Assembly: GCA_000025185.1 (NCBI GenBank)
Contig: CP001848.1
Span: 1,080,001-1,112,000, forward strand
Length of the DNA: 32,000 nucleotides
Direction of reading: 5' to 3'
Source of the DNA: Pirellula staleyi DSM 6068
GTDB taxonomy: Bacteria > Planctomycetota > Planctomycetia > Pirellulales > Pirellulaceae
Of the stretch, positions 1,964 to 30,885 are shown piece by piece. The notes below the pieces were generated by a model. The model searched no databases. It was not told the DNA's origin and saw only the letters and a program-made list of their open reading frames with translations. How positions within the stretch are numbered: the first letter of the stretch is position 1; every line of letters starts with the position of its first letter. A program made the translations under genes and the position numbers.

Positions 1964-2013
1964 GGGGCGATTCTAAAACACTCACTAACCAGTCTCTCTG
2001 CGGAGCCTTCGCG

Positions 2014-8452: not shown

Positions 8453-9378
8453 GTCAGCACCCCTTTCGGAATCGTTCGAAAGGGCCAAAACGTGATCGCC
8501 AGCAAACTCAGTTTCTTCCACTTCGAAAGGACCGGACGACGAACGAGCGGCTGATAGTTGGCATCGCGCACCGCATCGCAAATGGCAAGTCCGCCACGAA
8601 TGAATAGCTCGATGCTCCGGCGAAATTCGCGCGGCACGCGCGGCAGCAAATCCCAGCCTCGGCGAATGCTTTGACGCGCGTCGACCACTGCAGCTTCGAG
8701 GACCATTTGCAAATCGCTGTCGGTTTGATAATCGAGCAGTCGCTCGCGATCGATCTCGGTGCCGCCGAGCGCTTCAGCCGGCAGGTAGATTCGTCCGCGC
8801 TCGAAGTCCCGCCGCAGATCTTGCCAAAAATTAATCAGCTGTAGTCCCGTGCAAACGAAGTCCGAAAGTGCCATCGATACATCATCGCGCACATCGGCTA
8901 GCTCGAGGACCAAACGCCCCACAGGATTGGCGCTGCGGCGGCAATAGTCGTCGAGCTCACGCCAAGTGGCATAACGCGTCGTCTGCTGATCTTGTCGAAA
9001 CGCGCTCAGCAGATCGTGAAGCGGCGCGAAGGAGAGTTGCTTCGCTTGCACTGTGGCGGCAAGCGCAACAAACACCGGATGCGTCGCGTTTTGCCCCTGC
9101 TCCAGCGCGTCGAGCTGCTGCTGCCACCAGCCGAGCAAATGGGTCGCTTCTTCCGGCGTTTTGGCTTCGTCGGCCAGATCGTCGGCCCAGCGGCAATAGG
9201 CATAGAGGCTGGCGAAATGGTCGCGCAAGTGATGCGGCAGAAAGAGGTGCACGACCTGAAAATTCTCGTAATGCTCGCGCGCCAGCTGACGGCAATAGGC
9301 TTGCGATTCGGCCAGCGTCGGCACGCCCCGAGTGGGTGCCTCGGGACCATAGCGGAGAAGTTCTGCTGCCAAATCCAT
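8449..9378 (-). CDS. hpnC: Hydroxysqualene synthase (SQS/PSY family)
   Basis: Motifs YCRWADDLADEA and INFWQDLRRDFERGRIYLP. It is the first gene of the C-D-E order. I prefer the ATG at 9378 (MDLAAELLRYG...) over the TTG at 9408. The C versus D assignment rests on gene order and on motif flavour recalled from memory. Confidence 0.8.
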   Translation of the reverse strand: MDLAAELLRYGPEAPTRGVPTLAESQAYCRQLAREHYENFQVVHLFLPHHLRDHFASLYAYCRWADDLADEAKTPEEATHLLGWWQQQLDALEQGQNATHPVFVALAATVQAKQLSFAPLHDLLSAFRQDQQTTRYATWRELDDYCRRSANPVGRLVLELADVRDDVSMALSDFVCTGLQLINFWQDLRRDFERGRIYLPAEALGGTEIDRERLLDYQTDSDLQMVLEAAVVDARQSIRRGWDLLPRVPREFRRSIELFIRGGLAICDAVRDANYQPLVRRPVLSKWKKLSLLAITFWPFRTIPKGVLT

Positions 9379-9450
9379 GGCCCGTGTGACTCTTTCTGCG
9401 ACTCGCAACTTGCTGCAACGATCGATCTGGCGCGTGATGCCCTTGCCAGA

Positions 9451-12302: not shown

Positions 12303-12835
12303 GATCTTACCGAGTTGTTACAAAGTGATTTAGCAATTTCGAAAGAGTTATGGCACACTTACGTATCGTCTGCTGGGAAATCTGCCAGCAGCAAGCGCGC
12401 TGCCGCGACGAGTGTCGCGGTGGAAAAAGCCGGGAAATTTCGGCTCGCGCGACGCTCCCTCACCATCACGACCGCCAGCCGACCTGGGTGAAACGTGTGC
12501 AACCTGACGAGGAGATCGATTGTAGCGGATCGGCTGTCGCCGTGCTGCAGAGCAGACGCTCGGGGGCGAGTTTCGATCCGCTGCGGAAAGCTAGTGTTAC
12601 AGAGTCGTTACGGCGCAGCGACCAATTGGAGAACCAAGTTTCGGGCTCGATCGTCTAAACTGCGCGAAGTGAATTGCAAGACTTATCGATCGAACTCCTC
12701 TACACGATCCCACGGAGCAACTGCTGAAGCGTTGCCTCCGACCCACATAACAGCAGACGCTGGCTCTGCCAGCGCCACGAACCATTACCGAACTTTAGCT
12801 TGGCCAAGATTGCCACTGTCGTAAGGACCCTCTCC

Positions 12836-15800
12836 ATGAAGCCGACCTCGTTACTTTTTGAGAGAAGTGCCGCGCGTTGGTGCGCGCCGCTGATCGTCGG
12901 GCTGGTGATGCTCGCTGCAGTCACTGCCAGCATCGCGCAGGAATCTCCCATTCCACCTCCTGGTGCAGGGCTCGGTGGTCCTGACGTGACACTCCCCGGG
13001 ACACTCGGCGATCTGGCCAATCCCGACACCGCCAAAAATTTGCAGGACGAAAGCGAGCCGGTCGACGACAACTCGATTCGCGAGCGCACGATTTACATTC
13101 CCTATCAGCGGCTCAAATCGCTCTTCGAAAAACAGGGACGAGGGGTCTTCCTGCCGTACGAAAAATTCGAAGAGCTGTGGCGTGCTGCTCGCATGGCCAC
13201 CGCCCGCCCCGAAGATCCCAAACCACCGGTCAGCGCGCTCATCACCTCGATCGATAGCAAAGCCACGGTCGAGCAAGATGTGATGCGTGTGAACGCTACG
13301 ATTCAAATCGAGCTCCTCTCCAAAGGTTGGCACTCGATTCCACTCCGCCTCTCGGAGGCTGCGATTCGCTCGGCGATGATCGGTGGCAAACCGGCCCGCG
13401 TCATCGCGACCCCAACCGGCTATCAGCTGCTGCTGAAACACAACGACAAAGAGCCAGCTCAGCTGACACTCGAACTCGACTACTCCCGCGCCTATGCCAA
13501 AGAGCCAGGCAATAATCGAGTCAATTTCGATGCGCCACAGGCCCCAGTGAATCGCTGGGAAATTCGGATTCCGCAGCCCGGTGTGCAGGTGCAAGTTCGT
13601 CCGCAGCTGTCGACCACCGAGAGCCCTATGGGGATGATGGAAGCTGCTCCCGAGAACAAAGAAACGGTTGTGCAAGCGCTCGTCGGAGCGGCTGAGCAGG
13701 TGGAAATCTCCTGGACTGCAAAATCGGAAGGGGCCGCTGGTCTCACGGCGCTGGTCACTTCGCAAGTGCGCCAGGAAGTGACGATCGACGAAGGGGTGAT
13801 TCGGACCCGGGCCACCATTCAGTACGACATCACGCGCGCCGATCTCAAAGAACTGCGCGTGGAAGTTCCCGCTGAGCATGACGTCGTGAACGTGTTCGAT
13901 CCCAACGTACAGAAGTGGGAAAAAACCGTCGCCGATGGAGTGCAAACGATTGTCGTGCAGTTGTTTCAAGGAGCACGCGGCACGCAAAATCTGACGATCG
14001 AACTCGAGCGTTTTCTCGGCGATAAAGAGATGCCGCAAGAGATGCAGCGGCAAGAGATTTTGGCGCCAGTGATTCGCGCGGTCGGTGTGATTCGTCAGCA
14101 AGGGCTCGTGCTGGTGCGTCTTGCTCCATCGCTCCGCGCGGAAGTGACAGCCCGCACCAACTTGTTCCAGATCGATGCCTCGGAACTTCCTGAAGCGGTC
14201 GCCGGACAGCAGTTCGCTTTTTCGTTCCGCTATGCGACCCTTCCGTTTCAGCTCGCCATGATCGTCGAGAAGGTACAGCCGCTCGTCGAGGTCGATCAAC
14301 TCGTGGAGGTGTATGTCGAACCTCAGCAGACGCACATCAGCTTGCTGGCGATCTACAACATTCAGCGCGCGGGGGTGTTTCAGCTACAGCTCGATGTCCC
14401 CGAAGGGTACGACGTTCGGCAGGTGCAAGGTCGCGCTGCCGCTGGCGCTGAAGCGCTGCTGGTCGACTCGTTTCACGTCGATGATGTGATGGTCGATGGG
14501 AAGCCACAAAAAACGAAACTGATCGTCAACCTCGCACGGAAAGCGATGGGGCTCCTCGGCCTGCAGGTCGAACTCGATCGTCGTCAGGAAGATCAGAACC
14601 TGCTACTTCCTACGGGAAAATCGTCGGTTTTGTCGATTCCTGTCCCACGCGTAGCGAGTCTCGGCGTCCATCGCGCGGCGGGCAAACTCATCCTTTATGC
14701 TCCAGAAAGTTTGCGCATCTCGCCGACCGAACAAAAAGGTTTGCGAGCGATCTCTCCTGCCGAAGCACTGGTTGGGACGCAAAGCATTCGCGATGGCCGG
14801 TTCGGCGCAACGCGCGAACTTCTGGCCTATGCCTTCACGCAAGATCCAGTCAGTTTGGTGATCGATGCCGAACGACGTCAGCCGCAAATTACCTCGCGGC
14901 AATGGCTTGCTGTGAATGTCGAGCCAGGGGTGGTGAAGTATCGTTCGACCTTCTTCACGGAAGTCCGCTACAGTGGCGTGAAGAAATTGCGGATCGATAT
15001 GCCCAAGGCGCTTTACCCAGCGCAGATTCGCAATCAAACCGGCGCGATTCGCGATGCAGTAATGGCCCCTCAGCCCGACGATGTGGCGGAAGGTATGGTC
15101 GCCGTCGAGCTCTCGGCCGAAGGAGAATTCCTCGGCGCGAGTGAAGTGGTGTTTGCCTGGGAACAGAAGCTGGCGTCGCTCGAAGTGGGCAAGCCGCTGA
15201 AGATCACCCCGCCAAGTCTCGTCCCCAAGGGGGTCGATCGTCATCATGGACAAATCACGATTTCCAAGGAAGAAACGATCGATATTGGGATCGACAAACA
15301 GTCGTCGTCCCTTCGTCCGATCGATCCCCAGCGCGACTTGATGCAAGGTGTCGCGGCGAGCGATGCAGCTCGCGCACTCGAGTATCACGACGACTGGGAG
15401 CTCACGATCTTGGCGACTCGCTACCAGCTGGAAGAGGTGAAACGGACCAGCATCGAGCTGGCCCTCATTCGGATGGTGGTGACCCGCTCGAATCAAGTGA
15501 GTGTGCAAGCGCTCTACCGACTCCGCAGCGCGCGGCAACGTCTGCCGATGAAGTTGCCCGCGAGTGTGAATACCGAAACAGCGTTCGACACGCAGCCGCT
15601 GCAAATCAACGGGATGCCGGCGCAGCTCGAGAAAGATGCCACGCAGCTGTACATTCCGCTGGCGGGACAAAAAACGGATGCTCCGGTGCTGGTTGAACTG
15701 CGCTATACCTACGACGGTTCAGCGTCGGATCTCGCCCTTCCAGAGTTCTCGGAAGAGCCAGCGATTCAGCAGGTGTATGTCGCGGTCTACTTGCCCGAAG

Positions 15801-16522
15801 AGCAATCGATTCTCGGCGTGAGTGGACCTTGGAACGATCTCGAGCAGCCGAGCTTTCCACGTAACAAATCGTATGTCCGGGTCCCGACCGATGCCGATTT
15901 GCTCGGTCAACTTCGTGCGGGTATTTCAGGCTGCGAGATTGCGGGACAAAGTTTTCCGATCGATGGCCAGCGGCGCTTGCTCTCGGCGATTCGTCCGACA
16001 GCAGGTGAACCAGGCGCGATTCATATCACGTCGATGCACGAGCGAACCCTTTCGATTCTCGTCTTCCTGGCACTTGCGATTGCAGGTGTCGCCCTGACGG
16101 TGCGGCCACTGGTCGAGCGAGTTTGGGTGCTCGCCGCGGTGCTTGTCGCGCTGGTGCTGCTGGCGGTGATTGCTCCGACTCTCTCGGCCGCGCTGATGAA
16201 CACACCACTGGCCGCCGCGCTGCTGGTGGTCTTGGCGGCGTGGATCATTCGGGCCGCACTCTGGTGGGGTCCTCAATGCCTGGCAACTTGTCAGGCGGCG
16301 ACCCATCAGTGGCTTGCCGCGCGTGGCACACCGGTCGCCACCGCCACTTCCGCAGGTGCTGCCAGCGCCAGTCCGTTTGCTAGTGCCCCGGCTAGTAGCA
16401 CGACCGAATCGAGCTCCTCCGCAACTAGTCCAACACCACCGACTTCGCCTCCCACCGACTCCAGCAGCGCACCGGCTGACGACAGCTCGAGCCACACGAA
16501 AGGAGACGAGCACCATGGTTAA
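12836..16522 (+). CDS. Giant module A: signal peptide, ~1100-aa beta-rich ectodomain, C-terminal multi-TM anchor, Ser/Thr/Pro tail; unknown family
   Basis: The ATG at 12836 has AAGGA about 10 nt upstream. Signal peptide: MKPTSLLFERSAARWCAPLIVGLVMLAAVTASIAQE. TM cluster: LSILVFLALAIAGVALTV..VWVLAAVLVALVLLAVIAP..LAAALLVVLAAWII. Tail: SSTTESSSSATSPTPPTSPPTDSSS. It is paralogous to both halves of the next ORF. Confidence 0.85.
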   Translation: MKPTSLLFERSAARWCAPLIVGLVMLAAVTASIAQESPIPPPGAGLGGPDVTLPGTLGDLANPDTAKNLQDESEPVDDNSIRERTIYIPYQRLKSLFEKQGRGVFLPYEKFEELWRAARMATARPEDPKPPVSALITSIDSKATVEQDVMRVNATIQIELLSKGWHSIPLRLSEAAIRSAMIGGKPARVIATPTGYQLLLKHNDKEPAQLTLELDYSRAYAKEPGNNRVNFDAPQAPVNRWEIRIPQPGVQVQVRPQLSTTESPMGMMEAAPENKETVVQALVGAAEQVEISWTAKSEGAAGLTALVTSQVRQEVTIDEGVIRTRATIQYDITRADLKELRVEVPAEHDVVNVFDPNVQKWEKTVADGVQTIVVQLFQGARGTQNLTIELERFLGDKEMPQEMQRQEILAPVIRAVGVIRQQGLVLVRLAPSLRAEVTARTNLFQIDASELPEAVAGQQFAFSFRYATLPFQLAMIVEKVQPLVEVDQLVEVYVEPQQTHISLLAIYNIQRAGVFQLQLDVPEGYDVRQVQGRAAAGAEALLVDSFHVDDVMVDGKPQKTKLIVNLARKAMGLLGLQVELDRRQEDQNLLLPTGKSSVLSIPVPRVASLGVHRAAGKLILYAPESLRISPTEQKGLRAISPAEALVGTQSIRDGRFGATRELLAYAFTQDPVSLVIDAERRQPQITSRQWLAVNVEPGVVKYRSTFFTEVRYSGVKKLRIDMPKALYPAQIRNQTGAIRDAVMAPQPDDVAEGMVAVELSAEGEFLGASEVVFAWEQKLASLEVGKPLKITPPSLVPKGVDRHHGQITISKEETIDIGIDKQSSSLRPIDPQRDLMQGVAASDAARALEYHDDWELTILATRYQLEEVKRTSIELALIRMVVTRSNQVSVQALYRLRSARQRLPMKLPASVNTETAFDTQPLQINGMPAQLEKDATQLYIPLAGQKTDAPVLVELRYTYDGSASDLALPEFSEEPAIQQVYVAVYLPEEQSILGVSGPWNDLEQPSFPRNKSYVRVPTDADLLGQLRAGISGCEIAGQSFPIDGQRRLLSAIRPTAGEPGAIHITSMHERTLSILVFLALAIAGVALTVRPLVERVWVLAAVLVALVLLAVIAPTLSAALMNTPLAAALLVVLAAWIIRAALWWGPQCLATCQAATHQWLAARGTPVATATSAGAASASPFASAPASSTTESSSSATSPTPPTSPPTDSSSAPADDSSSHTKGDEHHG

Positions 16523-19500
16523 GTCGTCACTCTCCAGAATGCTTCTTCTGGCCGTTTTTAGCTTGTTTTTCGCGAGTTTTGTGGTCACCTCGGCAGAGGA
16601 ACCACCACTCGATCCGCCCGGTAATCCGCTGGCGGGTCAGCCGCTGGTGCGCGAGCTATTCGTGCCGCTCTCGGAGCTGAGCACGATCCTCGAAGCAGAT
16701 AAAGAGCGCGTCTTTTTGCCGCGCGAGCAGTACGAAAAAATGATTCGCGACGCGCGACAAAAAATGGGGGATAAACCACCGCAAGCGGCGCTGCTGCTCG
16801 CGGCGACCTACGAAGCTGCCCTCGAAACCGAGCGCGCGGTGATCAAGGGGACGCTCACCTTCGAAGTGCTCGACGACGGGCTGCATCAACTGCCGCTCGA
16901 TGTTGGTCGCGCAGGGATTCGGGTCGCTTCGCTCGATGGAAAACCGGCCATGCTGGCCCGCGATGTTTCGGGGAGCCTGTTTCTGCTCTCCGACGTCAAA
17001 GGGGTCCATCAGCTCGAACTGATTTTCACGACACCTTTGGTCACTTCTGCCGCGCAGCAAACACTGCCGATCACACTCCCTCAAACCGCTGCGACGAAAC
17101 TCACGCTCAGCGTTCCCGGGAATGTGGAAGTGAAAGGTGGCGCGCCGGTTTTGTCGCGCGTTTTCGACGAAGCGAGCAACGTCACGCGGCTCGAAGTGAA
17201 GCCGACTGCGGGCGAGTCGTCGGTAGTCATGTCGCTCAACAATAAACAGCTCCGTCAGCAGTCGCTGGTGATTGCGCGGGGGGTTCTCGTCGATGAAGTG
17301 ACCCTCGGTTATGAGCGTCTGCATGCCACCATGGCGATGCGCGTGCTGCATGGGGGGACCGATCGTTTTCGCTTCGAACTGCCTGCCGGTTTTGAAGTCA
17401 CCAAGGTCGATTCGGCGATGCTCGCGCGGTGGGAAGTCACCCCCGGTAAAGCGCCGGGTGAAGGGGCGATTCTCGAAGCCATCATGAGCGAAGCGATCAC
17501 CGATACGGTGGTGATCGACATCGCTGCAAACCGAAGCGTGAAACTAGCCGACGAGTGGCTCGCCGCACTCAAAACGTGGAAATTTCCGCAGCTGCGTCCC
17601 CTCGATGTGGCGGGGCAAGTCTTCGTCGTTGGTCTCCTCTCGGAAGATCGTTTGCAGCCCTACGGCATCACGACCACCGATCTCGTGCCGATCGATGCGG
17701 CGGTCCTTGCCACTGCTATTCCGGCGAGTGTGCTGAGCGCCGAAACTGGCGCGCCGACCGTTCGTCAGGTCGCCAGTTTCTATGCGCCGAGCAGTAGTTT
17801 TTCGCTCGCCGCCTCGTTTGATAAACCAGCAGCGGGACTCTTCTCGCGCAGCAACGTGCTCCTGACAATCAGCGAGCAAGAGCTGAGTGTGATTGGTGGT
17901 TTTGCGATCACTCCCGATAGCGAAAAATTGTTTGAAGTTCGTTTCACCGCCCCTCCGCTGTGGCAAGTGAGCGAGGTGACTCTCGCCGATGGTTCGCCGC
18001 TGCCGATCGAGCGTTATGGCACCGTCGATGGGGGCTCGCGGATCATCGTGCGCCTGCCGGTAGCTACGCCCAAGGGAGAGGCTGCGACGATCAACTACAA
18101 GGCTCGCTTCACCCCTCCTGGCTGGCTCGGAAAATGGACGACGCAAAAGATTAGCCTGCCGCAATTCGTGCTCGAAGGAGCGACGCGCGACAACGGCGCG
18201 GTGGCAATCGAACTGCTCGACGATTTGCAGGCGAGTCCCGATAAATTCGAGGGACTTTCGCCCCTTTTGGACAACGAAAAAGCGGCCTTTGGCCTGGCGA
18301 GCGTGGCGACTAGTTTGTCGTACCGATTCGATGCGCGGCCCTACGCGATGGAGCTGACGGTCAGCCGAACCGAACCTTCGCTCACCGCCGATGTGGTGTC
18401 GTTTTTTCAGCTCGAGCCCGATCTCGTCCGTGCGCATTACGAACTGCAGTACTCGGTCCGCGAAGCCTCGACGCGCATCTTGTCGTTCTCGCTTCCAGTG
18501 ACCACACCGGCTGAAATTGCGGTGACCGGCATGTATGGAGCGGTGGCTAAAGAGTATCGCGCCACGATCGATGGCGATCGCCGTGTCTGGACCGTCGAAC
18601 TCGATCGGCGTTACAGCGGCGATGTGTCGCTCGCCGTCGATTTTGTGAAGCGTGTCGCCGATAAAGAGCGCCGCGATCTGCTGCTGCCACTTATTACCGC
18701 CGAAGGGGTCGAGTATCAGTCGTCGCTCGCGGCGGTCGAAGGTTCGGCCGAGCTCGATGTGCAAGTGAAAGCAAGTCCGCGCAAAGTCGACGTCGGTGAG
18801 CTGGCTAACGCCGAGTATCAAGTGGGTAAACGGATCATCGGCGCTTATGGCTACGTCGGTGCCGATGCCAAACTGACAATCGATATGCTCGAGCGCGATG
18901 CCTATCCACTCCCGCCAGCGATTGTGCAGCGGGCTCAGCTCATCTCGAAGGTGAGCATGCAAGGGATCGCTCAATCGGTCGCCCGGTATGCCATCATTAC
19001 CAAGGCCGATACGCTCGAAATTTCGCTCCCAACTGGCTCGACACTCTGGACAATTCTGCTCGACGGTGCACCGACCAAACCGCAGCGGACCGGCGATTCG
19101 CTCCTCCTGAGCTTGCCGAGCCAACAGGCCCCCACGCTGCGCGAGATTCGTTTGGTCTACGAGACGAAACTCTCGTCGCTTGGACTCACCGGCATGATCG
19201 ATCTGGCACCACCACGGTTGATGCTCATTGCGGGTGAATCGCGCGATGTTCCGCAGGCCGATCTCGATTGGAAACTCACACTTCCTGCGGGCTACGAACT
19301 CTCGAGCAGCTCGTCGCAGTTCACCACCACCGATCTGCCGAAGCGCGTCCATCCGGCCGTGAAAGTGGCGGCGGTGCTGTACGAACTCGCCGGAGGCTTC
19401 GATCCGTTTTATGGCAGCACGAAGTGGCGGAGCGATGTCGGTGGAACGTCTTATTACTACAATGAAGCCCCCACGACCCAGAAAAGTGCGGCCGATAGTT

Positions 19501-22500
19501 TTCGCTTTGGAATCCCCACTCCCAGTGCTGTTTCGAGCGCGCCGATGGGAGCTCCCGCTACCGATCCGATGTCGACTGTCGATAGGCCGATGGCCGAAGC
19601 GCTCGAAGAGATGCCCGCAGCTGATGCGACTCCACCACCTCCTAGTATGGAGCCCCCAGCACCAGCCGCTCCAGCGCCACCGGTGCTCGCTCCCGCCGAG
19701 CCAATGGTGCCTCAAAGTGCTCCCACTGGGGAGATGAAACCGAGCGATCAATCGAAATCGGAGCCACCGGGTGAACAGCGCGGCGAACTCGAAGAGCGGC
19801 TGAAGGAACAAACCCAGCTTGCTCGTGAAACGCTCGACGCGCGCTTCTGGGCGCTCGAAGGGGTCAGCAGCCTCGCCATCGACATCACTCCGCAGGAGAA
19901 CGAACCGACCGTATCATTCGCCTCACTCGGCGGAACACAGCCGATCGAAGTTGCAGTGATCGATAGCCGCCGGATGTCGTCGCTCGCTTGGGGTGTGTCG
20001 CTGCTGGTGCTGATCGTCGGCCTGGCGCTGACACGACAAAACCTCGCGCAGCAGCTCGGCTATGTCGCTGTGCTGCTCCTCGTCAGTGGCCTGGTGCCGC
20101 TGCTGGGAGAGACCTTCTCGCAAGTCACCAGCGCCATGGAAGGGATCTTCTTTGCCGCCGTGCTGCTGGTCCCCTACTACCTGCTGGTGGCCATTGCCAA
20201 ACCGACGTATCGCAAACTCGTCGAGCTCGCCGCTTGCTGCCGCACAACGAACTTGCAGCAGATCGCCTCGGTGATGGTGATGGCGCTGGTTCTCGCGACC
20301 GCATCGACGCTGTCGGCACAAGAACCGGCACCAACGAACGTCATCGATCTCGAGAAGCTGATCCCGCTCCTCACCGATCAAGGGCCTCCAGTCACAGTTC
20401 CGCCCGATGCCGTGATCGTGCCGTTTGATCCCGAACTTCCCGATGGGGAAGAGAAGGCGACGAAGGTGCTGATTCCTTATGCCAAGTATGTCGAGCTGTG
20501 GAATCTGGCTCATCCCGAAAAGAAGATCGACGACGGCGCACTGCCGCGCGAATTTGCTCTCGCCAGGGCCAGCTATAGCGCGTCGCTCGTCGATGGCAAC
20601 GAACTGGTGATTCAAGGGGAACTCACCATCGATGTCCTCACCAACAAGGGAGTTGCGATTCCGTTGGCGCTGCGCGGCGCGATGCTGCAGCGGGCACTGG
20701 TCGATGGTAAACCGGCCCGATTGTCGCTCGCCACCCTCGCCGAGATCCCTCAGCCGCAGCTGCAAATGCCTCCGGAAATGCCGGGCTCGATCACGATATT
20801 GCATCTTCCGAAAAAGGGACGCGTTACTGTGTCGCTCGTCATCCATACAGGACTCGTCCGACGTGGTGGCTGGCGCGCTGTCGACGCGATATTGCCCGTG
20901 GCAGCTGCCAACGAAGTGCAGCTGAAGGTGCCGCTCGCCAAGACGGAAATCCGTCTCGCCGACGTTCCCGATCAAGGGCGCTGGGAAACCAAAGCCGACG
21001 CCGAAACGATCGTCACCACGCTCGCCACCAGTGGCGCGCTGAACTTACAGTGGCGTCCCCAAGTGGCCGAAGCGGTGATCGATCAAGGACTCACTGCGCG
21101 CTCGACTGGTGTGCTCGATGTCCGCGAAGATGCCGTCCGCATGGCCTGGACCACGATGCTCGAATTCGGGCGTGGCTCGCGCGATCGCTTCACCTTCCTA
21201 GTCCCACTCGATTACACCATCGAGCAGGTGCAAGGGGTCAACATTCGTGGCTGGGAAGCGAAAGTCGATGGCGATCAGCAAACGCTCGACGTCACGCTGC
21301 TGCGCACCGCTGTCGGCAGCGAAACAATCACCGTGCAGCTGTCGCGACGAGGCCTGCCCCCCAAAGACGAACTCCTCGGTGGTTCGCTAATCGCTGCCCC
21401 TCAGGTGCAAGTGGTTGGCGCAGCGCTGCAGCAAGGCGAAGTCGCCGTACGACGCGGCAATCGACTCACGCTCCGCACCACGCAAAGCACCGGCCTGTCG
21501 CGCGCCGATCTCTCGGCGGAAGCGGCTGCTGTCGCCCAGTCGGCCGAAGCGCTCGATGCTCCGGTACTTCCGCTCTCGAACTATCAATCCTACCGCTATG
21601 TCTCGCTCCCTTACGTCCTCCGTTTGGTGGCGACCGAGCAGGCTGCGAACGTCACGGCGACCCTGCAAACAGCGGTCCGCATTGCGAGTCGCGATACCAC
21701 GATCGATGCAGCGATTCAGCTCCGCAGCGTCGGGCAGCCTCTCTATCATGTCGATGTTTCGCTACCGAAGAATTTTCGGCTCGACAGGCTTCTACCTGCA
21801 GGACTCGAATGGTCCCTCACCCCGGCCGACGATCATCAGCGGCTGAGCGTGCAACTGCAAACTGGTCAGGCCGAGTCGTTCACTCTCACGCTGCAAGGGC
21901 TCCTGGTGCGTGATTCCAAAGAGAAGACGCTCGACATTCCGCGCCTCAGCGTGCTGTCGGCTACGAGTCAAACCGGCGAGATTGTTTTTCTGGCCGATCC
22001 CGATACCGATGTCAGTCTCTCGGATCTGAAAAACTGCATCCTGGCGAGTGGCGTGGGGTGGCTTGCGCAAGAGCAGCGCAGCCTCGCGCGCATCGCTATC
22101 AACTACCGCGTCGGTGACTACAGTGGCAAGGCAACTACTCGCACACGTCAGCCGGTTATCTCCGGGCGCTCGATCACGAACGTGAAAGTGACGCGTCGCG
22201 CGATCGAAGAAACGGTCCTCGTCACCTACAACGTGCAGCGGGCCGGAATCCACGAGATTTCGCTCCTTTTGCCCGACTATTTGCGCCGCGCTCGGGTCCG
22301 CACACCGCTGCTCAAGCGCAAGTTCATCGAGACCGCCAAGGATGCCGAAGGAAAAGAGATCCCCGGCTTTGTGCGCCTCGTCATCGAACTGCAAGACGAT
22401 GTGATCGGTCCGTTGTCGTTCGTGCTCGAACACGATCGTCTCCTCGCCTCGACGAAGCAAAGTGTCATCACGCCGCAGCTCACGCAGGTACAAAATCCCG

Positions 22501-24557
22501 AGCGTTTGATGGCGGTGGAAAATGCCGGTGTCGACGAAGTGCTGATCGATGGCAAATCGGCCGGGCTCGAAGAAGTGCCGCGCGCTCAGCAGCTCTATCG
22601 CGAAGTCTCAGCGATCCTCGGCGATCAGCTCACGCAGCTGTTCCGCGTTCCCGCTTCGATCAGCCGCGGCGAACTGCAGTTCCAAACCAATTCGCGCGAG
22701 GAAGTCGAACGTCCCCGAGCCCGTATCGAACTGGCGACGAGTGTGCTTGTGGTCGATGCCGCTGGCACCTACCGAGGTCAGCAAGACTATCGCCTTAGCA
22801 ACGACACCGAGCAGTTCCTGGAAGTGAAACTCCCGAGCGGAAGTTCGCTCTGGACGGCCATTGTCGCTGGTGAACCGGTGAAGCCTGTGCAGCTCGATCC
22901 CCCTGTCGCCGGAAGTGTCCGCATCCCGCTCGTGAAAACGGCCGAAGGTGAAGGAGACTATCTCGTGCAGCTGAAGTACGGCGGTCAAATGCCACCGCTG
23001 GCGAGTCTCTCGGAAATTAGTTTTCCCCTCATTTTAGCCCTGAATATCAAGGCCGAAGAGAGCCAAACCACCCTCTACTTGCCGAAGAATTTTGTTTGGC
23101 AATCGTTCGGCGGCACGATGCGTCATGTCGACGATCGTGGGGAACTGGAGCTCGGTTTTCAGTCGTACTTAAACCGCCGGATCACAAGCGCCACGCAGCT
23201 CCTCTCGAGCAGCAATCCGTTTACGAAATTGCGGGCGCAGGCCAACCTGAAGATGGCCGAGGCGATGCTCAGTAATGGCAACGCCATGAACACCACGCGC
23301 AGCAGCGAGCAAGGTCAGTACAACTATCAGCTGCTGAGCAAAGCGCGCGAACTTTCCGTCACCGAGCTCAACGAGTCGGCGGGCGCGGTGATCGTCGACA
23401 ATCGCGCGCGGCTGAACGAGTTCAATGGCGAACAGCAGCTGCGCCGCAGCAAGAACGTCGTCTCGAATTTTGGGAGCAACTTCGATGGCCGTGCTTCGGG
23501 CATTGCCGATCCGAACGCTCCACCGCTGGCCAACGGCAACTTCAATAACGCCTGGTTCGATCAGAACAAACTCAACAGCGCAGCGCCCAACCAGGCGGGG
23601 GATAAGGCTGAACAACTCGCAGGCAAACCCTACGCGAGTGGTTCGCGCGTCCAGTCGCGAGCCCGGTTCGACGATCAGCGACAGGAACAAAGCGTTCCCA
23701 AATTGCGACTCGAAGAAGCGCAGCAAAAGATGCAGGAAGCCAAGAAGTCGAAAGCCGACACGAGTGAAGGACTCGCTTACGGCTCGAAAGATCGGCGCGG
23801 CCTCGAACGCTATCAGAAACAGCTCGACGACGAAGTGACCCGCGATCAGCTGCAACAGCAACTCGGCAACTCCGTTCCCCAAGTCGCCCAGTCCTACAGT
23901 GGCGAAGAAAGTGGCGGCGGCAACCAAGGTGGCCCGGGAGCTGTTACTGGTGGTCAGCCGATGCCAGGAGTACCTGGCGGCTCAGGTCCAATGGGCGGCG
24001 GCTTCGGAGGTGGCGAACGAAACTTCTATGCCAATCCCGATAGGGTAGAAACGTACAACGGGCCTGCAGTGGCGATGGACGTGGACGCAGCGGCGCAACA
24101 TGTTGAACTCGATGCATTGGGGGCACTAGCGACCAACAGCGCCACCTGGAATGTGCAACTCGCAAACGGGCAAACCGGCTACACCAGCCTCGATGTCGAC
24201 CTGACGGCGGTGGGAGATGCCTATCTCTTCACCACCCCTCGCGGCGAGGTGTCGATCACCGCTCGTCCGGTTGCCAGGTCGCTCGTCGAGCAGTCGTTCT
24301 CGCTCGGCATCGCCCTGGTGGTGATCCTCATTGCCGTGGCGATCATCCGCTTCAAAGTCGCCCAGCGGATCTTCGCCGGTGTGCAATCCACCATCGGCTG
24401 CATCCTGGCCTGCGTCTTTGGGTTTGCCATGATGGTTTGCGGCGTCTTCCCGGTGCTTGGCATGCTGCTGTTCGTCACCACCCTGGTGCTGATCGTCAGC
24501 CGCGCCATCCGCACCCGCCTCGCCACCTGGAACTCCGCCCCCCGCCCCGGCCTCTAA
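16515..24557 (+). CDS. Giant modules B+C fused in one 2680-codon ORF: two complete copies of the module-A architecture separated by a TM cluster and an internal signal-peptide-like segment; unknown family
   Basis: The ATG at 16515 is codon 68 of the track ORF and is preceded by AGGAG at 16501-16505. It overlaps the module A stop as ATGGTTAA. Signal peptide: MVKSSLSRMLLLAVFSLFFASFVVTSAEE. The frame is uninterrupted to 24557. TM clusters lie at about 19974-20215 and 24290-24510. Confidence 0.85.
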   Translation: MVKSSLSRMLLLAVFSLFFASFVVTSAEEPPLDPPGNPLAGQPLVRELFVPLSELSTILEADKERVFLPREQYEKMIRDARQKMGDKPPQAALLLAATYEAALETERAVIKGTLTFEVLDDGLHQLPLDVGRAGIRVASLDGKPAMLARDVSGSLFLLSDVKGVHQLELIFTTPLVTSAAQQTLPITLPQTAATKLTLSVPGNVEVKGGAPVLSRVFDEASNVTRLEVKPTAGESSVVMSLNNKQLRQQSLVIARGVLVDEVTLGYERLHATMAMRVLHGGTDRFRFELPAGFEVTKVDSAMLARWEVTPGKAPGEGAILEAIMSEAITDTVVIDIAANRSVKLADEWLAALKTWKFPQLRPLDVAGQVFVVGLLSEDRLQPYGITTTDLVPIDAAVLATAIPASVLSAETGAPTVRQVASFYAPSSSFSLAASFDKPAAGLFSRSNVLLTISEQELSVIGGFAITPDSEKLFEVRFTAPPLWQVSEVTLADGSPLPIERYGTVDGGSRIIVRLPVATPKGEAATINYKARFTPPGWLGKWTTQKISLPQFVLEGATRDNGAVAIELLDDLQASPDKFEGLSPLLDNEKAAFGLASVATSLSYRFDARPYAMELTVSRTEPSLTADVVSFFQLEPDLVRAHYELQYSVREASTRILSFSLPVTTPAEIAVTGMYGAVAKEYRATIDGDRRVWTVELDRRYSGDVSLAVDFVKRVADKERRDLLLPLITAEGVEYQSSLAAVEGSAELDVQVKASPRKVDVGELANAEYQVGKRIIGAYGYVGADAKLTIDMLERDAYPLPPAIVQRAQLISKVSMQGIAQSVARYAIITKADTLEISLPTGSTLWTILLDGAPTKPQRTGDSLLLSLPSQQAPTLREIRLVYETKLSSLGLTGMIDLAPPRLMLIAGESRDVPQADLDWKLTLPAGYELSSSSSQFTTTDLPKRVHPAVKVAAVLYELAGGFDPFYGSTKWRSDVGGTSYYYNEAPTTQKSAADSFRFGIPTPSAVSSAPMGAPATDPMSTVDRPMAEALEEMPAADATPPPPSMEPPAPAAPAPPVLAPAEPMVPQSAPTGEMKPSDQSKSEPPGEQRGELEERLKEQTQLARETLDARFWALEGVSSLAIDITPQENEPTVSFASLGGTQPIEVAVIDSRRMSSLAWGVSLLVLIVGLALTRQNLAQQLGYVAVLLLVSGLVPLLGETFSQVTSAMEGIFFAAVLLVPYYLLVAIAKPTYRKLVELAACCRTTNLQQIASVMVMALVLATASTLSAQEPAPTNVIDLEKLIPLLTDQGPPVTVPPDAVIVPFDPELPDGEEKATKVLIPYAKYVELWNLAHPEKKIDDGALPREFALARASYSASLVDGNELVIQGELTIDVLTNKGVAIPLALRGAMLQRALVDGKPARLSLATLAEIPQPQLQMPPEMPGSITILHLPKKGRVTVSLVIHTGLVRRGGWRAVDAILPVAAANEVQLKVPLAKTEIRLADVPDQGRWETKADAETIVTTLATSGALNLQWRPQVAEAVIDQGLTARSTGVLDVREDAVRMAWTTMLEFGRGSRDRFTFLVPLDYTIEQVQGVNIRGWEAKVDGDQQTLDVTLLRTAVGSETITVQLSRRGLPPKDELLGGSLIAAPQVQVVGAALQQGEVAVRRGNRLTLRTTQSTGLSRADLSAEAAAVAQSAEALDAPVLPLSNYQSYRYVSLPYVLRLVATEQAANVTATLQTAVRIASRDTTIDAAIQLRSVGQPLYHVDVSLPKNFRLDRLLPAGLEWSLTPADDHQRLSVQLQTGQAESFTLTLQGLLVRDSKEKTLDIPRLSVLSATSQTGEIVFLADPDTDVSLSDLKNCILASGVGWLAQEQRSLARIAINYRVGDYSGKATTRTRQPVISGRSITNVKVTRRAIEETVLVTYNVQRAGIHEISLLLPDYLRRARVRTPLLKRKFIETAKDAEGKEIPGFVRLVIELQDDVIGPLSFVLEHDRLLASTKQSVITPQLTQVQNPERLMAVENAGVDEVLIDGKSAGLEEVPRAQQLYREVSAILGDQLTQLFRVPASISRGELQFQTNSREEVERPRARIELATSVLVVDAAGTYRGQQDYRLSNDTEQFLEVKLPSGSSLWTAIVAGEPVKPVQLDPPVAGSVRIPLVKTAEGEGDYLVQLKYGGQMPPLASLSEISFPLILALNIKAEESQTTLYLPKNFVWQSFGGTMRHVDDRGELELGFQSYLNRRITSATQLLSSSNPFTKLRAQANLKMAEAMLSNGNAMNTTRSSEQGQYNYQLLSKARELSVTELNESAGAVIVDNRARLNEFNGEQQLRRSKNVVSNFGSNFDGRASGIADPNAPPLANGNFNNAWFDQNKLNSAAPNQAGDKAEQLAGKPYASGSRVQSRARFDDQRQEQSVPKLRLEEAQQKMQEAKKSKADTSEGLAYGSKDRRGLERYQKQLDDEVTRDQLQQQLGNSVPQVAQSYSGEESGGGNQGGPGAVTGGQPMPGVPGGSGPMGGGFGGGERNFYANPDRVETYNGPAVAMDVDAAAQHVELDALGALATNSATWNVQLANGQTGYTSLDVDLTAVGDAYLFTTPRGEVSITARPVARSLVEQSFSLGIALVVILIAVAIIRFKVAQRIFAGVQSTIGCILACVFGFAMMVCGVFPVLGMLLFVTTLVLIVSRAIRTRLATWNSAPRPGL

Positions 24558-24841: not shown

Positions 24842-25558
24842 ATGAGCGTTAGCACCTACAATTCGATCACGGCGGTTCTGGGGCTGGGGGTCGTGATTGC
24901 CTTGGTGGTGATGGTGGTCTCGCTGATCGCCATGATCGTGCGCTGGAGATCCCCGAAGCGGCGCACGCATGTGGTGCGCCTGCTAGGTTCGCTGGCGGCA
25001 ATTGTCGGCCTGATTGGAACGCAGCAAGCGCTCCTTTGGCTGGTTTTCATTCCGTCGCTCGGTCGCGAGCAAATGGCAAAGTTCCAAGCGGCCCGCGAGG
25101 CAAGTCTGGCAGAGAGTTCGCTGGTGCGCGTCGGTGATGCTGCGCCGTCCTTCACGCTGACGACAGACGAGGGGCGTCCGTTTTCGCTCCCCGACGACAA
25201 GCGCGTCACACTAATCAATTTCTTTGCGACCTGGTGTGGACCGTGCCAGCTCGAACTGCCACATCTCGAGCGCATTTGGAAAGCGAACCAAAGCCAGGCG
25301 CACTTTCAAATGCTGATCATCGGCCGCGAAGAGACCACGGAAACGGTGCAGACCTACCGCGCAAAGTATGGCTACACTTTCCCGATGGCAGCCGATCCTG
25401 ATCGGAGCGTGTTTGCCCGTTTCGCCCGAGAATCGATCCCCCGGACTTTGGTCGTGTCGCCCGACGGGCAGATCGTCTACTCCCAAGCCGGCTTCAACGA
25501 GGCTGACCTCGAAGAGCTCGAAAAGGTGCTTCGCGAGCAGTTAGCGCAGCTCCCCTGA
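24842..25558 (+). CDS. Membrane-anchored TlpA/ResA-like thiol:disulfide oxidoreductase (thioredoxin fold)
   Basis: WCGPC active site in LINFFATWCGPCQLELPHLERIW. Two N-terminal hydrophobic helices. Redoxin-like C-terminal FPMAADPDRSVFARF...IPRTLVVSPDGQIVY. Confidence 0.85.
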   Translation: MSVSTYNSITAVLGLGVVIALVVMVVSLIAMIVRWRSPKRRTHVVRLLGSLAAIVGLIGTQQALLWLVFIPSLGREQMAKFQAAREASLAESSLVRVGDAAPSFTLTTDEGRPFSLPDDKRVTLINFFATWCGPCQLELPHLERIWKANQSQAHFQMLIIGREETTETVQTYRAKYGYTFPMAADPDRSVFARFARESIPRTLVVSPDGQIVYSQAGFNEADLEELEKVLREQLAQLP

Positions 25559-26877: not shown

Positions 26878-29466
26878 ATGCACCTCGCTCGGAATGCTTC
26901 TTTGGCTCGTCTCGCGTCGCTGGCAACCATCGCCTCCGCCCCACTGCTGCTCGTCGCGTTTCCGGCGACGCTGCTGGCGCAAGAGCCCGCTGCTGCACAA
27001 GCCGCCGGCAGTTTTGGAGTGATGGAATACGTCTGGTGGACCCTCTGCCTCGTCGCGTCGATCGCCGCCCTGGTGCAAGCCTGGGTCTTCTATAAGGCGA
27101 TGATGGCGTCGGACGAAGGAACCCCCAAGATGGTCGAAATCGCCGGCTATGTGCGGACCGGCGCGGCCGCTTATTTGAATCAGCAGTACAAAGTGGTGGC
27201 GATCTTTTTTGTCGTCATCGGCGCGCTTCTGGCCGTACAAGCGTTTTACTTGAAGGTGCAAAGCGAGTTTGTTCCGTTCGCGTTCATCACCGGAGGTCTG
27301 TTCAGCGGACTGGCTGGCTACTTCGGCATGAAAACCGCCACTTGGGCCAGCAGCCGCACCGCCGCCGCGGCTCAGAAGTCGCTCAACCAGGGTCTGCAAG
27401 TCGCCTTTCGCAGCGGCGCGGTGATGGGACTCGTGGTGGTGGGCCTCGGTCTGCTCGACATCACCCTGTGGTATGCCCTGCTCCGCTGGGTGTTTGGCCA
27501 GAACCTGCAAGAGACCACCGTGGCGATGCTCTGCTTCGGCATGGGTGCTTCGAGCCAGGCGCTGTTTGCCCGCGTCGGCGGTGGCATCTTCACGAAAGCG
27601 GCCGACGTCGGTGCCGACCTGGTTGGTAAAGTCGAACAAGGGATTCCGGAAGATGATCCGCGCAACCCCGCCACCATCGCCGACAACGTGGGTGATAACG
27701 TCGGCGACGTCGCTGGCATGGGCGCCGATCTCTATGAATCGTACTGCGGCAGTATCCTCGCCACCGCAGCGCTCGGCGTGGCAGCGTTTCTCGACAGCGG
27801 CGACATGCAGCTGCGAGCGATGTTCCTGCCACTGGCGATCGCCGGGGTCGGCATTTTTCTTTCGATCATCGGGATGTACCTGATTCGGACCGGCGAAGAT
27901 GCTACGCAAAAACACCTCCTGGCCGCTTTGGCCAATGGCATCAACGCCGCCACGCTGCTGAGCGCCGCCGCTTCGATCGCCCTCACCTGGCTGATCATGC
28001 CCGGCTATCTCGGCATCGCCGGAAGCGTGATCGTGGGACTCGTCGCCGGCTGGATGATCGGCAAATGGACCGAATACTCCACGAGCGACGAGTATCAGCC
28101 GACCAAAGAACTCGCGGCCCAATCCCTCACCGGACCTGCCACCGTCATCATCGGCGGCATTGCCGAAGGGATGATCAGCACCTGGTTTCCGGTGGTGGTT
28201 GTCGCCGTCGGCACACTGCTCGCCTTCGGCTTCTCGACGAGCTGGAATTTCGCCGACGTGCAGCTCTTCTCGCTCGGGCTCTACGGTGTTGGCATCGCGG
28301 CTGTCGGCATGCTCAGCACCCTGGGCATCACACTCGCTACTGACGCCTATGGACCAATCGCCGACAACGCCGGTGGCAACGCCGAAATGGCCCACCTCGG
28401 CCCTGAAGTTCGTAAACGGACCGACGCCCTCGACAGCCTCGGCAACACCACCGCCGCGACTGGCAAAGGCTTTGCCATTGGCTCAGCCGCTCTCACAGCA
28501 CTGGCCCTTTTGGCCGCCTATGTCGAAGAGGTTCGCATCGGCTTCGATCGCTGGGGCAAAAGCCCCGAGATCATCACCGAGACTGCCGACGACGGCTACT
28601 ACAAAATCAACGACCGCTTCGTCGTCCATAAAGAAGGGAGCGATCGTAAAGCGTGGGAAATGTACCTCGTGATGCCCGACGATGCCCGCATGACCGGCTG
28701 GAAAAAGGGGACCGATCAGGAGCTCGCCACACCGGCCGGAATCGCCTCGAAATTGAGCATCGACGAGGCCAATATCACCGGCGATAAAACGGCGATGTTC
28801 CTCACGATCGCGGGGCTTCCTCAGCCGATCAAGCTGGTCAACTTGCACCGCGCTACGCTCCCCGATTTCGCCGCCTACTACGACGCCACGCTCATCAACC
28901 CCAAATCGCTGGTCGGCATGTTCCTCGGGGCAATGTCGGTCTTCGTTTTCTGCGCCATGACGATGAAAGCGGTCGGCCGCGCCGCCAAGGGCATGGTCGA
29001 AGAAGTCCGCCGCCAGTTCAAAGAAAAACCGGGCATCATGAAAGGGACCGAGCTTCCCGACTACGCTGCCCCAGTCGCCATCAGCACCAAAGCAGCCCAG
29101 CGCGAAATGATCCTCCCCAGCTTGCTCGGACTTCTCACCCCCGTAGCGGTCGGCATGGTCCTCGGCGTCGGCGGTGTCCTCGGTCTCCTCGTCGGCTGTC
29201 TCTCCACCGGCTTCTGCGTCGCCATCTTCATGGCCAACTCGGGTGGCTCGTGGGACAACGCTAAAAAGCATATCGAGGCGGGCAATTTTGGCGGAAAAGG
29301 GACCGACGCCCACAAGGCGGCTGTCGTCGGCGACACCGTCGGCGACCCCTTCAAAGACACCAGCGGCCCGAGCCTCAACATCCTCATCAAACTGATGAGC
29401 ATGGTCAGCGTCGTCGTCGCCGGCCTCGTCGTCCGCTACAGCCTCGAAGCCCTCGGAATCTTCTAA
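26878..29466 (+). CDS. hppA: Membrane-bound (K+-dependent type) ion-translocating pyrophosphatase
   Basis: Diagnostic motifs GGIFTKAADVGADLVGKVE, DDPRNPATIADNVGDNVGDVAGMGADLYESY, DAYGPIADNAGG, GNTTAATGKGFAIGSAAL, SGGSWDNAKK and VGDTVGDPFKDTSGPSLNILIKLM. The 862-aa length includes an N-terminal signal-like helix and a loop insertion. Confidence 0.95.
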   Translation: MHLARNASLARLASLATIASAPLLLVAFPATLLAQEPAAAQAAGSFGVMEYVWWTLCLVASIAALVQAWVFYKAMMASDEGTPKMVEIAGYVRTGAAAYLNQQYKVVAIFFVVIGALLAVQAFYLKVQSEFVPFAFITGGLFSGLAGYFGMKTATWASSRTAAAAQKSLNQGLQVAFRSGAVMGLVVVGLGLLDITLWYALLRWVFGQNLQETTVAMLCFGMGASSQALFARVGGGIFTKAADVGADLVGKVEQGIPEDDPRNPATIADNVGDNVGDVAGMGADLYESYCGSILATAALGVAAFLDSGDMQLRAMFLPLAIAGVGIFLSIIGMYLIRTGEDATQKHLLAALANGINAATLLSAAASIALTWLIMPGYLGIAGSVIVGLVAGWMIGKWTEYSTSDEYQPTKELAAQSLTGPATVIIGGIAEGMISTWFPVVVVAVGTLLAFGFSTSWNFADVQLFSLGLYGVGIAAVGMLSTLGITLATDAYGPIADNAGGNAEMAHLGPEVRKRTDALDSLGNTTAATGKGFAIGSAALTALALLAAYVEEVRIGFDRWGKSPEIITETADDGYYKINDRFVVHKEGSDRKAWEMYLVMPDDARMTGWKKGTDQELATPAGIASKLSIDEANITGDKTAMFLTIAGLPQPIKLVNLHRATLPDFAAYYDATLINPKSLVGMFLGAMSVFVFCAMTMKAVGRAAKGMVEEVRRQFKEKPGIMKGTELPDYAAPVAISTKAAQREMILPSLLGLLTPVAVGMVLGVGGVLGLLVGCLSTGFCVAIFMANSGGSWDNAKKHIEAGNFGGKGTDAHKAAVVGDTVGDPFKDTSGPSLNILIKLMSMVSVVVAGLVVRYSLEALGIF

Positions 29467-30229: not shown

Positions 30230-30232
30230 TGC

Positions 30233-30309
30233 GTAGGGCAGGCTCCCGCCTGCCGATGCTGCTCAGTTGGCTGGGGTGGGGTCTGTCAAATGGGGGCGGG
30301 TGGAGCCGG
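30233..30309 (+). repeat. Intergenic repeat family 2, copy 2
   Basis: gtagggcaggctcccgcctgccgatgctgctcagttggct starts 4 nt after the stop of ORF 29807..30229. Hairpin GGCAGGC-tccc-GCCTGCC lies at 30237-30254. Confidence 0.65.
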
Positions 30310-30470
30310 AACTTGGGTTCACGGCAGCTGTGGGCTTGTGAATACCGAAGCATCTCATCCGGTCGTCGATAGATTTTGTTCGGCGACTGTTTTAACAGCT
30401 TTTATTCCAGGTAGCACGAGTGAAAGATTACCTAGAAATCATCTACTAAAACCCGGGGCATCACTCTGAA

Positions 30471-30857: not shown

Positions 30858-30885
30858 AAATGGCCAACATGCCTTTCCGTACTTA

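Follow-up and report, generated by a model that had tools for sequence, protein, structure and literature searches.

A conserved two-gene cassette of three paralogous, predicted membrane-anchored modules in Pirellula staleyi as a candidate cell-envelope system

The locus described here lies in Pirellula staleyi DSM 6068 (assembly GCA_000025185.1, contig CP001848.1), in a 32,000-nucleotide stretch of the forward strand (1,080,001-1,112,000) that we refer to as the window and whose numbering is used throughout. An initial annotation, made from the sequence alone, had described the region 12836-24557 as three consecutive large modules, A, B and C, on one strand. Open reading frame (ORF) listing and translation showed that the region holds two same-strand genes rather than three. 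Gene A (12836-16522, plus strand, like all features of the cassette given below) was placed exactly in that annotation; it begins with ATG and encodes module A, a product of 1228 residues for which an identical public protein exists (P0001). The second gene, called BC here (16515-24557), encodes 2680 residues without interruption, and its reading frame is free of stop codons over 16314-24557, so that the units annotated separately as B and C are two halves of one protein. The start proposed for C (~20274) is a methionine within a hydrophobic segment, TM4, with no stop codon before it and no obvious ribosome-binding site in front of it. The likely start of BC is the ATG at 16515, which overlaps the TAA stop codon of A (16520-16522) by 8 bp and has AAGGAG ~9 nt upstream. 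This arrangement is typical of translational coupling, and A and BC are probably coupled, as judged from the overlap.

By sequence comparison, A, B and C are distant but unambiguous paralogs, with similarity well past chance. BLASTP aligned A with C over ~900 residues at 22% identity (E 3e-19), B with C over ~860 residues (E 4e-13) and A with B at E 2e-18. Profile-profile comparison over 812-854 columns, using profiles built from orthologs, gave E-values of 1.4e-41 for A-B, 2.2e-43 for A-C and 2.1e-44 for B-C, and the juxtamembrane and transmembrane (TM) part gave a weaker match between the A and B profiles (E 2e-5). The relationship that had been read by eye is thereby upheld. The modules share a common order of elements, consisting of a signal-like start, a double motif, a domain D0, three repeats D1 to D3, a domain D4, a variable linker, two juxtamembrane strands and three TM helices. 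Both the N-terminal block (BLASTP, consensus) and the distal block (BLASTP, profile-profile comparison) that had been proposed as common to the modules do align in all three. The proposed strand ahead of a group of hydrophobic helices is more precisely two short strands followed by three TM helices, as found by hydropathy, AlphaFold2 and profiles. Signal-peptide-like starts are present by hydropathy as proposed, with the difference that the start of C is the internal segment TM4. Off-diagonal profile matches and domain-versus-domain comparison revealed three homologous repeats of ~190 residues in each module; in A, hhalign matched D1 to D2 at E 3.5e-10, D2 to D3 at 2.8e-11 and D1 to D3 at 4.4e-7, with probabilities of 93-97%. 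These internal repeats account for the recurring units of the 'IQYDITRA...VEVP' type noted earlier. We hold this anatomy of A and BC, with its paralogs, domains and predicted anchors, with high confidence.

Module A opens with a predicted signal peptide (residues 1-34, 12836-12937) identified by hydropathy, with presumed cleavage at ...ASIA/QE. The double motif IYIPYxxL..F / VFLPYEKFxxLW follows at residues 83-120 (13082-13195), with invariant columns from E83 to A118. It is the most conserved stretch of A and is common to B and C, in which the consensus reads REIFVPFEDL / RVFL.R.EY and DAVI.PYDP / k.LvPY.kyvELW, respectively. The beta domain D0 (residues 131-300, 13226-13735) was assigned from AlphaFold2 secondary structure and the predicted local distance difference test (pLDDT), and it aligns with B and C. 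The repeats D1 (residues 304-480), D2 (481-682) and D3 (683-870), delimited by hhalign, together cover 13745-15445 and carry two ~25-residue strands each. Domain D4, the distal block (residues 871-1000, 15446-15835), was taken from the AlphaFold2 model and aligned to B and C. The juxtamembrane strands and three TM helices occupy residues 1040-1146 (15953-16273) by hydropathy, AlphaFold2 and profile evidence. The remainder is a C-terminal tail (16274-16519) rich in S, A, T and P (S22 A21 T15 P11 %), unconserved in sequence and predicted from the TM count to be cytoplasmic.

Module B begins with a predicted signal peptide (residues 1-27, 16515-16595, ...TSA/EE) supported by hydropathy and motif statistics, after which its N-terminal motif and beta array extend over residues ~44-940 (16644-19334), as defined by the conservation profile and by profile alignment to residues 80-963 of A and to C. 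A variable P/A-rich linker (residues ~950-1100, 19362-19814; P17 A15 %, conservation 0.17-0.28) leads to the juxtamembrane strands and TM1 to TM3 (residues ~1110-1228, 19842-20198), located by hydropathy and the consensus waLeGv.SL.Idl...tF.SLG. The junction loop between B and C (residues 1229-1249, 20199-20261) is rich in K/R and Cys by ortholog composition, has CC at 1241-1242 and is predicted to be cytoplasmic. TM4, an internal segment resembling a signal peptide (residues 1250-1268, 20262-20318), was recognized by hydropathy and ends in ...TLSA/QE, where cleavage is presumed. The N-terminal motif and beta array of C (residues 1269-~2200, 20319-23114) align by profile to residues 84-998 of A and 46-938 of B, and also by BLASTP. 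A long variable linker rich in Q, N, G and A by composition (residues ~2201-2550, 23115-24164, conservation 0.10-0.39) precedes the last segment (24165-24557), which comprises the juxtamembrane strands (GYTSLDVDL...YLFTTPRGEVSITAR, with ortholog consensus GLASLDv.lP.rG..y.FTTPrG..eItAr), TM5 to TM7 by hydropathy and a short basic tail. The linker is thus short in A (~40 residues), ~150 residues in B and ~350 residues in C, and is poorly conserved in all three.

Hydropathy of BC shows, in order, the signal-like start, the B array, three TM helices, the short loop, TM4, the C array and three further TM helices. Across 119 sequences the junction loop contains 420 K+R against 94 D+E, which by the positive-inside rule predicts a cytoplasmic location, and the resulting 3+1 membrane passes would put the B and C arrays together outside the cytoplasmic membrane. 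All three arrays, that of A included, are predicted to face outward from this membrane, held by their C-terminal three-TM bundles. The membrane-tethered, outward-facing topology of the initial annotation agrees with both hydropathy and the positive-inside rule. Because there are three TM helices per module, the inner membrane is the likeliest anchor, which makes a scaffold in the periplasm a more plausible role than an adhesin at the surface. The ectodomains of A and BC are almost free of Cys, and the TM helices of A have no charged residue among their invariant or near-invariant columns. The junction loop contains 4.6% Cys against 0.22% overall, an approximately 20-fold enrichment, with CC in 37 of 119 orthologs and motifs such as PADCCQP and KCCSRCC. 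In A, a C-x3-C motif stands directly after the last TM helix; Cys occurs there in only 11 of 57 A orthologs and is not conserved.

The sequences of TM4 and the loop are variable, and the end of TM4 is a conserved small-x-Ala/Gln motif. Of 119 orthologs, 77 (65%) have a strict [AGSTVC]x[AGS]Q pattern after the TM4 hydrophobic core, compared with 79 of 120 (66%) after the N-terminal signal peptide of A, 54 of 119 (45%) after that of BC, and a background of 14% in random ectodomain windows. Traits expected of a signal-peptidase I substrate, namely a basic loop, a hydrophobic core and AxA/Q, are seen in those 77 of 119 sequences; the P. staleyi copy has Leu at position -3, where such substrates carry a small residue. 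These patterns suggest that TM4 is probably a re-export signal cut by signal peptidase I and that BC is a polyprotein. The length of the apolar run in TM4 relative to TM1 to TM3 does not discriminate between a signal peptide and a TM helix. The residue after the predicted cleavage site is Gln in A (12935-12943) and C (20316-20324) and Glu in B (16593-16601), and Gln follows AxA in most orthologs. For signal-peptidase I substrates of Bacteroidetes, a paper that does not mention Planctomycetes describes a '+1 Gln / pyroglutamate rule' (PMC5837995).

In order to establish how widely the cassette occurs, homologs were counted at E<=1e-3 among the candidates scored, and details were taken from the 120 best per gene. 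Gene A had 589 homologs; the 120 best are all 1100-1290 residues long and share 44-75% identity with A, except the identical P0001, and they are unnamed or labeled 'hypothetical' with no Pfam domains. Gene BC had 294 homologs, and 118 of its 120 best are 2400-3000 residues long. In a profile search with A, 4944 cluster representatives scored E<=1e-3, of which 1374 reached E<=1e-30, and relatives were found in 300 species genomes, with labels mostly of Pirellulaceae, Pirellulales and Thermoguttaceae and with Anatilimnocola isolates included. The modules are thus conserved in relatives, and it is well supported that the cassette belongs to Planctomycetota, mainly Pirellulales. A divergent two-module protein of 2476 residues with an internal TM cluster is encoded on a 1.35-Mb contig of a metagenome-assembled genome (MAG) labeled 'Verrucomicrobia bacterium' (L086:10001-17431); either the family reaches outside Planctomycetota, or this MAG may be mislabeled.

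Fused BC follows A in ~45 of the ~49 related loci with enough flank. In the other four, B and C appear split through frame breaks in or near the low-complexity linker of B, with no clean gene boundaries. The pairing of A with BC persists down to 24-29% identity (L084, L085 and L087), and in two of these loci the genes overlap by 4 or 8 bp. A protein of 2372 residues from a Thermoguttaceae MAG (P0319) joins A and B in one ORF, with the TM cluster of A in mid-protein; this is a genuine alternative fusion, or else the product of a 1-nt error in a short A/BC overlap. This A-B fusion provides support of the Rosetta-stone type for joint function, and together with the start/stop overlap and the BC fusion it should tie the stoichiometry of the modules. 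We also considered functionally independent tandem paralogs, for instance of an adhesin or binding type, in which case the B-C fusion would be meaningless and uncut. Tandem duplication is the simplest origin of such an array, but A plus fused BC and the start/stop overlap are kept over the whole range of divergence just given with no drift in copy number, each paralog forms its own conserved orthologous group, and A and B are fused elsewhere; we consider independence distinctly unlikely.

Conserved neighbors were analyzed in 84 sequences, comprising the window and the related loci. Besides A and BC, the only widely shared clusters were shadow ORFs overlapping these two genes, and the next real neighbor occurred in 8 loci. 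As there is no other conserved neighbor, the cassette is self-contained.

Scans of A, B and C against Pfam, NCBIfam and PADLOC gave no match, Pfam scans of 29 divergent family members gave no recurrent weak match, and PDB searches by sequence and by profile gave only chance matches of TM helices at E~1. The statement that the modules belong to no nameable family therefore stands, with no Pfam, NCBIfam, PADLOC or PDB sequence relative. The same holds for the reported lack of catalytic, nucleotide-binding, VWA, cadherin and RHS motifs, none of which was found by the Pfam and NCBIfam scans and a motif check; a motif search of A and BC for HExxH, thioester, Walker A, RTX, YD, RGD and LPxTG was also negative. 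In the literature on planctomycete envelope complexes of this kind, no description of the A/BC family was found.

An AlphaFold2 model of residues 1-1167 of A, built with 57 homologs, had a mean pLDDT of 83 and exceeded 90 for most of residues 300-1000. In this all-beta model each repeat has paired strands of ~25 residues; the juxtamembrane strands lie at 1045-1051 and 1062-1068 and are followed by helices at 1069-1162. Behind the signal peptide, the linker of residues 32-89 has pLDDT below 50, and the double-motif helices (residues 90-120) reach ~50-60 in this monomer model, as would be expected if the region folds only in a complex. A model of the single repeat D2 had a pLDDT of 92 and a predicted TM-score (pTM) of 0.84. 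Foldseek searches of the A model against the PDB returned integrin alpha legs, ribophorin I/Ost1, alpha2-macroglobulin-type proteins and the N-terminal domain of LTA4H, with E-values of ~1e-9 to 1e-5, yet with TM-scores of 0.07-0.32 and 7-12% identity. D2 best matched the N-terminal domain of M1 aminopeptidases/LTA4H (E ~1.5e-7, 230-240 columns, TM ~0.4), and a viral library gave only generic matches. The initial view that immunoglobulin (Ig)-like repeats are lacking holds for sequence models; the predicted fold, however, is a tandem array of beta-sandwich type. The domain folds are of ordinary beta-sandwich type, and it is the family and its architecture that appear undescribed.

Two of the readings considered draw on these fold matches. 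In the first, the cassette would encode an integrin-like receptor or signal transducer whose ectodomains sense a ligand of the envelope or the cell exterior and whose cytoplasmic tails and loops relay the signal. Integrin alpha legs are indeed the top whole-chain matches (E ~4e-9), and the TM segments, cytoplasmic tails and Cys-rich cytoplasmic loop would suit such a role, but the TM-scores are 0.13-0.16 at 8-10% identity, the beta-propeller with its FG-GAP repeats is lacking (no Pfam match at E<=1, and the model is of beta-sandwich type only), the tails are of low complexity and unconserved, and no kinase or regulator is a conserved neighbor; we regard this reading as very improbable. In the second, the modules would form a protease trap or periplasmic defensive barrier resembling alpha2-macroglobulin, an idea based on weak Foldseek matches to alpha2-macroglobulin, complement and TEP proteins and on a similar size and all-beta build. 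The Foldseek probability is only 0.3-0.4 with a TM-score of 0.07, Pfam gives no MG, A2M or TED match, the CxEQ thioester is absent, PADLOC has no match, and a multi-TM anchor takes the place of a lipoprotein signal. This second reading is largely refuted and barely credible.

We favor an arrangement in which A, B and C would combine at 1:1:1 in a single pseudo-threefold complex. Standing on the inner membrane and extending into the enlarged periplasm of planctomycetes, this complex would act as a structural strut or scaffold, neither enzyme nor transporter. The strictly conserved double 'PY' motifs at the N termini would provide a membrane-distal contact, either among the three chains or with a partner, and the variable linkers would serve as tethers. 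TM4 would act as an internal signal peptide that re-exports the chain, and its cleavage by signal peptidase I at AxA/Q would yield equimolar B and C from the BC polyprotein. In favor of this arrangement are the gene order, overlap and fusion kept to 24-29% identity, the A-B fusion P0319, confident all-beta models whose structural relatives are only non-catalytic beta-sandwich 'leg' or 'saddle' domains, and the lack of catalytic or nucleotide-binding motifs. The paralogy and common architecture, the membrane passes that put all arrays on one side, the lack of further conserved neighbors, the nearly Cys-free ectodomains, the uncharged conserved columns in the TM helices of A and the frequency of AxA/Q at TM4 also speak for it. 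Several points weigh against it. Complex formation, stoichiometry, localization and cleavage are all inferred from sequence, and the relative orientation of the domains in the A model is uncertain (pTM 0.46). In P. staleyi TM4 ends in TLSA/QE, whose Leu at -3 makes it a poorer signal-peptidase site than most orthologs have. The two-module gene of L086 stands without an adjacent A-type gene, and the ectodomain is highly conserved over its whole length (A 45-55% across an order), more than a passive spacer seems to need. Finally, in one lineage (L084) the C linker carries Secretin_N domains, which build rings, and this hints at a machine-like assembly. On balance, we rate an inner-membrane-anchored A/B/C scaffold heterotrimer as a tentative mechanism, a little below an even chance. 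The more specific proposal, that the cassette builds a heterotrimeric periplasm-spanning structure of Planctomycetota, made through a signal-peptidase-cut BC polyprotein and supporting the enlarged periplasm, the invaginations or the crateriform base, is doubtful.

Another possibility is a membrane-anchored two-dimensional lattice or coat, similar to an archaeal S-layer held by C-terminal TM helices. In place of discrete struts, it would give shape or stiffness to the cytoplasmic membrane and to the invaginations of that membrane. Beta-sandwich domains arrayed in tandem above a C-terminal anchor would fit it, three paralogs could supply the lattice contacts and the whole surface is conserved, but the long disordered linkers are poorly suited to a tight lattice, and we consider it improbable.

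The same cassette could instead form the inner-membrane platform of a trans-envelope machine, such as the base of a crateriform-structure, fiber or pilus apparatus or of a secretion or uptake conduit, with the modules stacked as pseudo-threefold rings that enclose a channel or filament. The BC ortholog of L084 (L084:3733-12531) contains two Secretin_N domains (PF03958, E 1.3e-20, 73.8 bits) at residues ~2615-2767, inserted where the periplasmic C linker meets the juxtamembrane strands and TM helices; none of the other homologs of this protein was found to have them. About one tenth of the BC orthologs listed have a Pfam match of ~24 residues to the start of the DUF1559 (SBP_bac_10) model, just after D4 of B or C (P0123, residues 2262-2285; P0132, 1028-1054; P0175, 2249-2270; P0402, 992-1018), and one BC ortholog is named 'DUF1559 domain-containing' by NCBI on such a ~24-residue match. 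We take the start of this model to be the helix that follows a prepilin-type anchor, so that several orthologs would have a pseudopilin-like N-terminal helix at this point. The occurrence of three tandem repeats per chain in three chains would also suit a platform, and crateriform-associated fibers and macromolecule uptake occur in planctomycetes without assigned genes (PMC12673574). However, conserved neighbors encoding an ATPase, secretin, pilin or transporter are lacking, Secretin_N is limited to one lineage, the DUF1559 match is a short motif, and no polar network is evident in the TM helices. A machine platform is therefore unlikely in our view; the lattice, receptor, protease-trap and independent-paralog readings are less supported still. 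As leads to function, the ortholog matches to DUF1559, PATR and SQHop_cyclase_C were set aside as short or marginal, PATR being only a marginal match in two distant orthologs.

The remainder of the window offers the following context. A noncoding stretch of 533 bp (12303-12835) lies upstream of gene A, with no sigma-70-like promoter match and no Rfam family in it, and an Rfam scan of the window together with a promoter and terminator scan gave nothing above background. Two small ORFs upstream of A (12350-12658 and 12495-12824) have no Pfam match and no conservation signal. Long antisense ORFs of up to 755 residues lie inside A and BC (17544-19811, 12851-14335, 14603-15670 and 19923-20975, all on the minus strand). 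The first three seemed to be shared across loci, and were rejected as conserved genes because they are shared only as shadows of A and BC; the antisense ORFs are artefacts of G+C-rich coding sequence. Upstream and on the other strand are squalene-synthesis genes, a leucine-rich-repeat protein and a beta-CASP nuclease, and downstream are a redoxin and an H+-pyrophosphatase (26878-29466), none of them conserved beside A and BC. The squalene-type genes on the minus strand comprise a flavin amine-oxidase-type gene (6114-7565) and two squalene/phytoene-synthase-family genes (7562-8581 and 8449-9408), which we take to be a three-step squalene synthesis cluster of the HpnE/HpnD/HpnC type; this cluster (6114-9408) is not conserved adjoining A and BC in the related loci. 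Redox or oxidative-stress-type genes on the plus strand flank the cassette at 1268-3642 and 24842-25558 and include a glutathione peroxidase, a protein with a YHS/TRASH metal-binding domain, a chlorite-dismutase-family protein and a membrane-anchored redoxin. An IS4/IS5-family transposase gene (DUF4096 + DDE_Tnp_1; 30935-31801, plus strand) adjoins the kilobase of lowest G+C content (30001-31000, 0.50 vs ~0.60).

A 2025 review describes the enlarged periplasm, inner-membrane invaginations and crateriform structures of planctomycetes as being without assigned molecular players (PMC12673574). A conserved, self-contained cassette of ~3,900 residues, with three paralogs and no described relatives, predicted to reside in the inner membrane and to occupy periplasmic space, is a testable candidate for such a player. 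If the mechanism favored above is true, BC would be a rare bacterial multi-spanning polyprotein in which an internal signal-peptidase site fixes subunit stoichiometry. If the products are only passive and dispensable envelope proteins, the several thousand sequences still amount to a new domain family worth a database entry. The suggestion of an undescribed envelope system is borne out insofar as a new, conserved, predicted membrane-anchored family is present, and the proposed role as scaffold, adhesin or barrier stays at the level of inference. A/BC is a good, unproven candidate for a new cell-envelope structure, and what is new in it is the family and the architecture, not the single domain folds.

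Comparison with known systems places the cassette more precisely. Integrin alpha legs (thigh, calf-1 and calf-2) resemble the modules in being a chain of beta-sandwiches with a membrane anchor and a cytoplasmic tail, but integrin alpha has a single C-terminal TM helix where each module has three, and A, B and C are bacterial, form a set of three paralogs and have no beta subunit. Ribophorin I/Ost1 likewise has luminal beta-sandwich domains in tandem ahead of a TM anchor, and matched in Foldseek at E ~6e-9 over 420-460 columns with a target TM-score of only 0.23-0.32; the Ribophorin_I model PF04597 matches neither A, B and C nor the 29 divergent members, no STT3 or other oligosaccharyltransferase gene is found in the window or as a conserved neighbor, and the modules are ~3x larger than ribophorin I and have internal repeats. 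The beta 'saddle' domain at the N terminus of M1 aminopeptidases and LTA4H superposes on D2 at a TM-score of only ~0.4, with a root-mean-square deviation of 8-10 A and 8-12% identity, and the HExxH catalytic domain is absent from A and BC, which have no Peptidase_M1 match. Alpha2-macroglobulin and other MG thioester proteins are alike in being large all-beta multi-domain chains with weak fold matches, and differ in their thioester C[GL]EQ and MG/TED models, of which A and BC have none. Secretin ring proteins differ from the P. staleyi A and BC proteins in their Secretin_N and secretin domains, absent here by Pfam. A BatD or aerotolerance (Bat, MoxR-VWA) identity was rejected with no PF13584 match and no conserved MoxR, DUF58 or VWA neighbors. 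Known repeat adhesins (cadherin, Big, RHS/YD, RTX, PATR and VWA) were likewise rejected, with no Pfam or NCBIfam match and no RTX, YD, RGD or LPxTG motif in A or BC. AsmA/TamB and MCE proteins (LetB/PqiB) were set aside as identities, as Pfam gives no match to them, the anchor of A and BC is C-terminal and the 50 best fold matches include neither group.

Archaeal S-layer glycoproteins carry tandem Ig-like domains on a C-terminal tether to the cytoplasmic membrane and enclose a pseudo-periplasmic space; no sequence relation to them was found, and A and BC differ in having three TM helices per module and in lying under an outer membrane. GldM/PorM of the type IX secretion system, the MCE proteins LetB/PqiB, and TamB/AsmA are anchored in the inner membrane and reach across the periplasm with repeated domains as oligomers. 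Their anchors are N-terminal and their folds are Ig-like plus helical, MCE and beta-taco, respectively. Neither Pfam nor the 50 best fold matches link A or BC to any of these proteins, GldM/PorM included. We use these proteins as a working analogy for A/BC, which differs from them in its C-terminal three-helix anchor and in being a would-be heterotrimer of paralogs.

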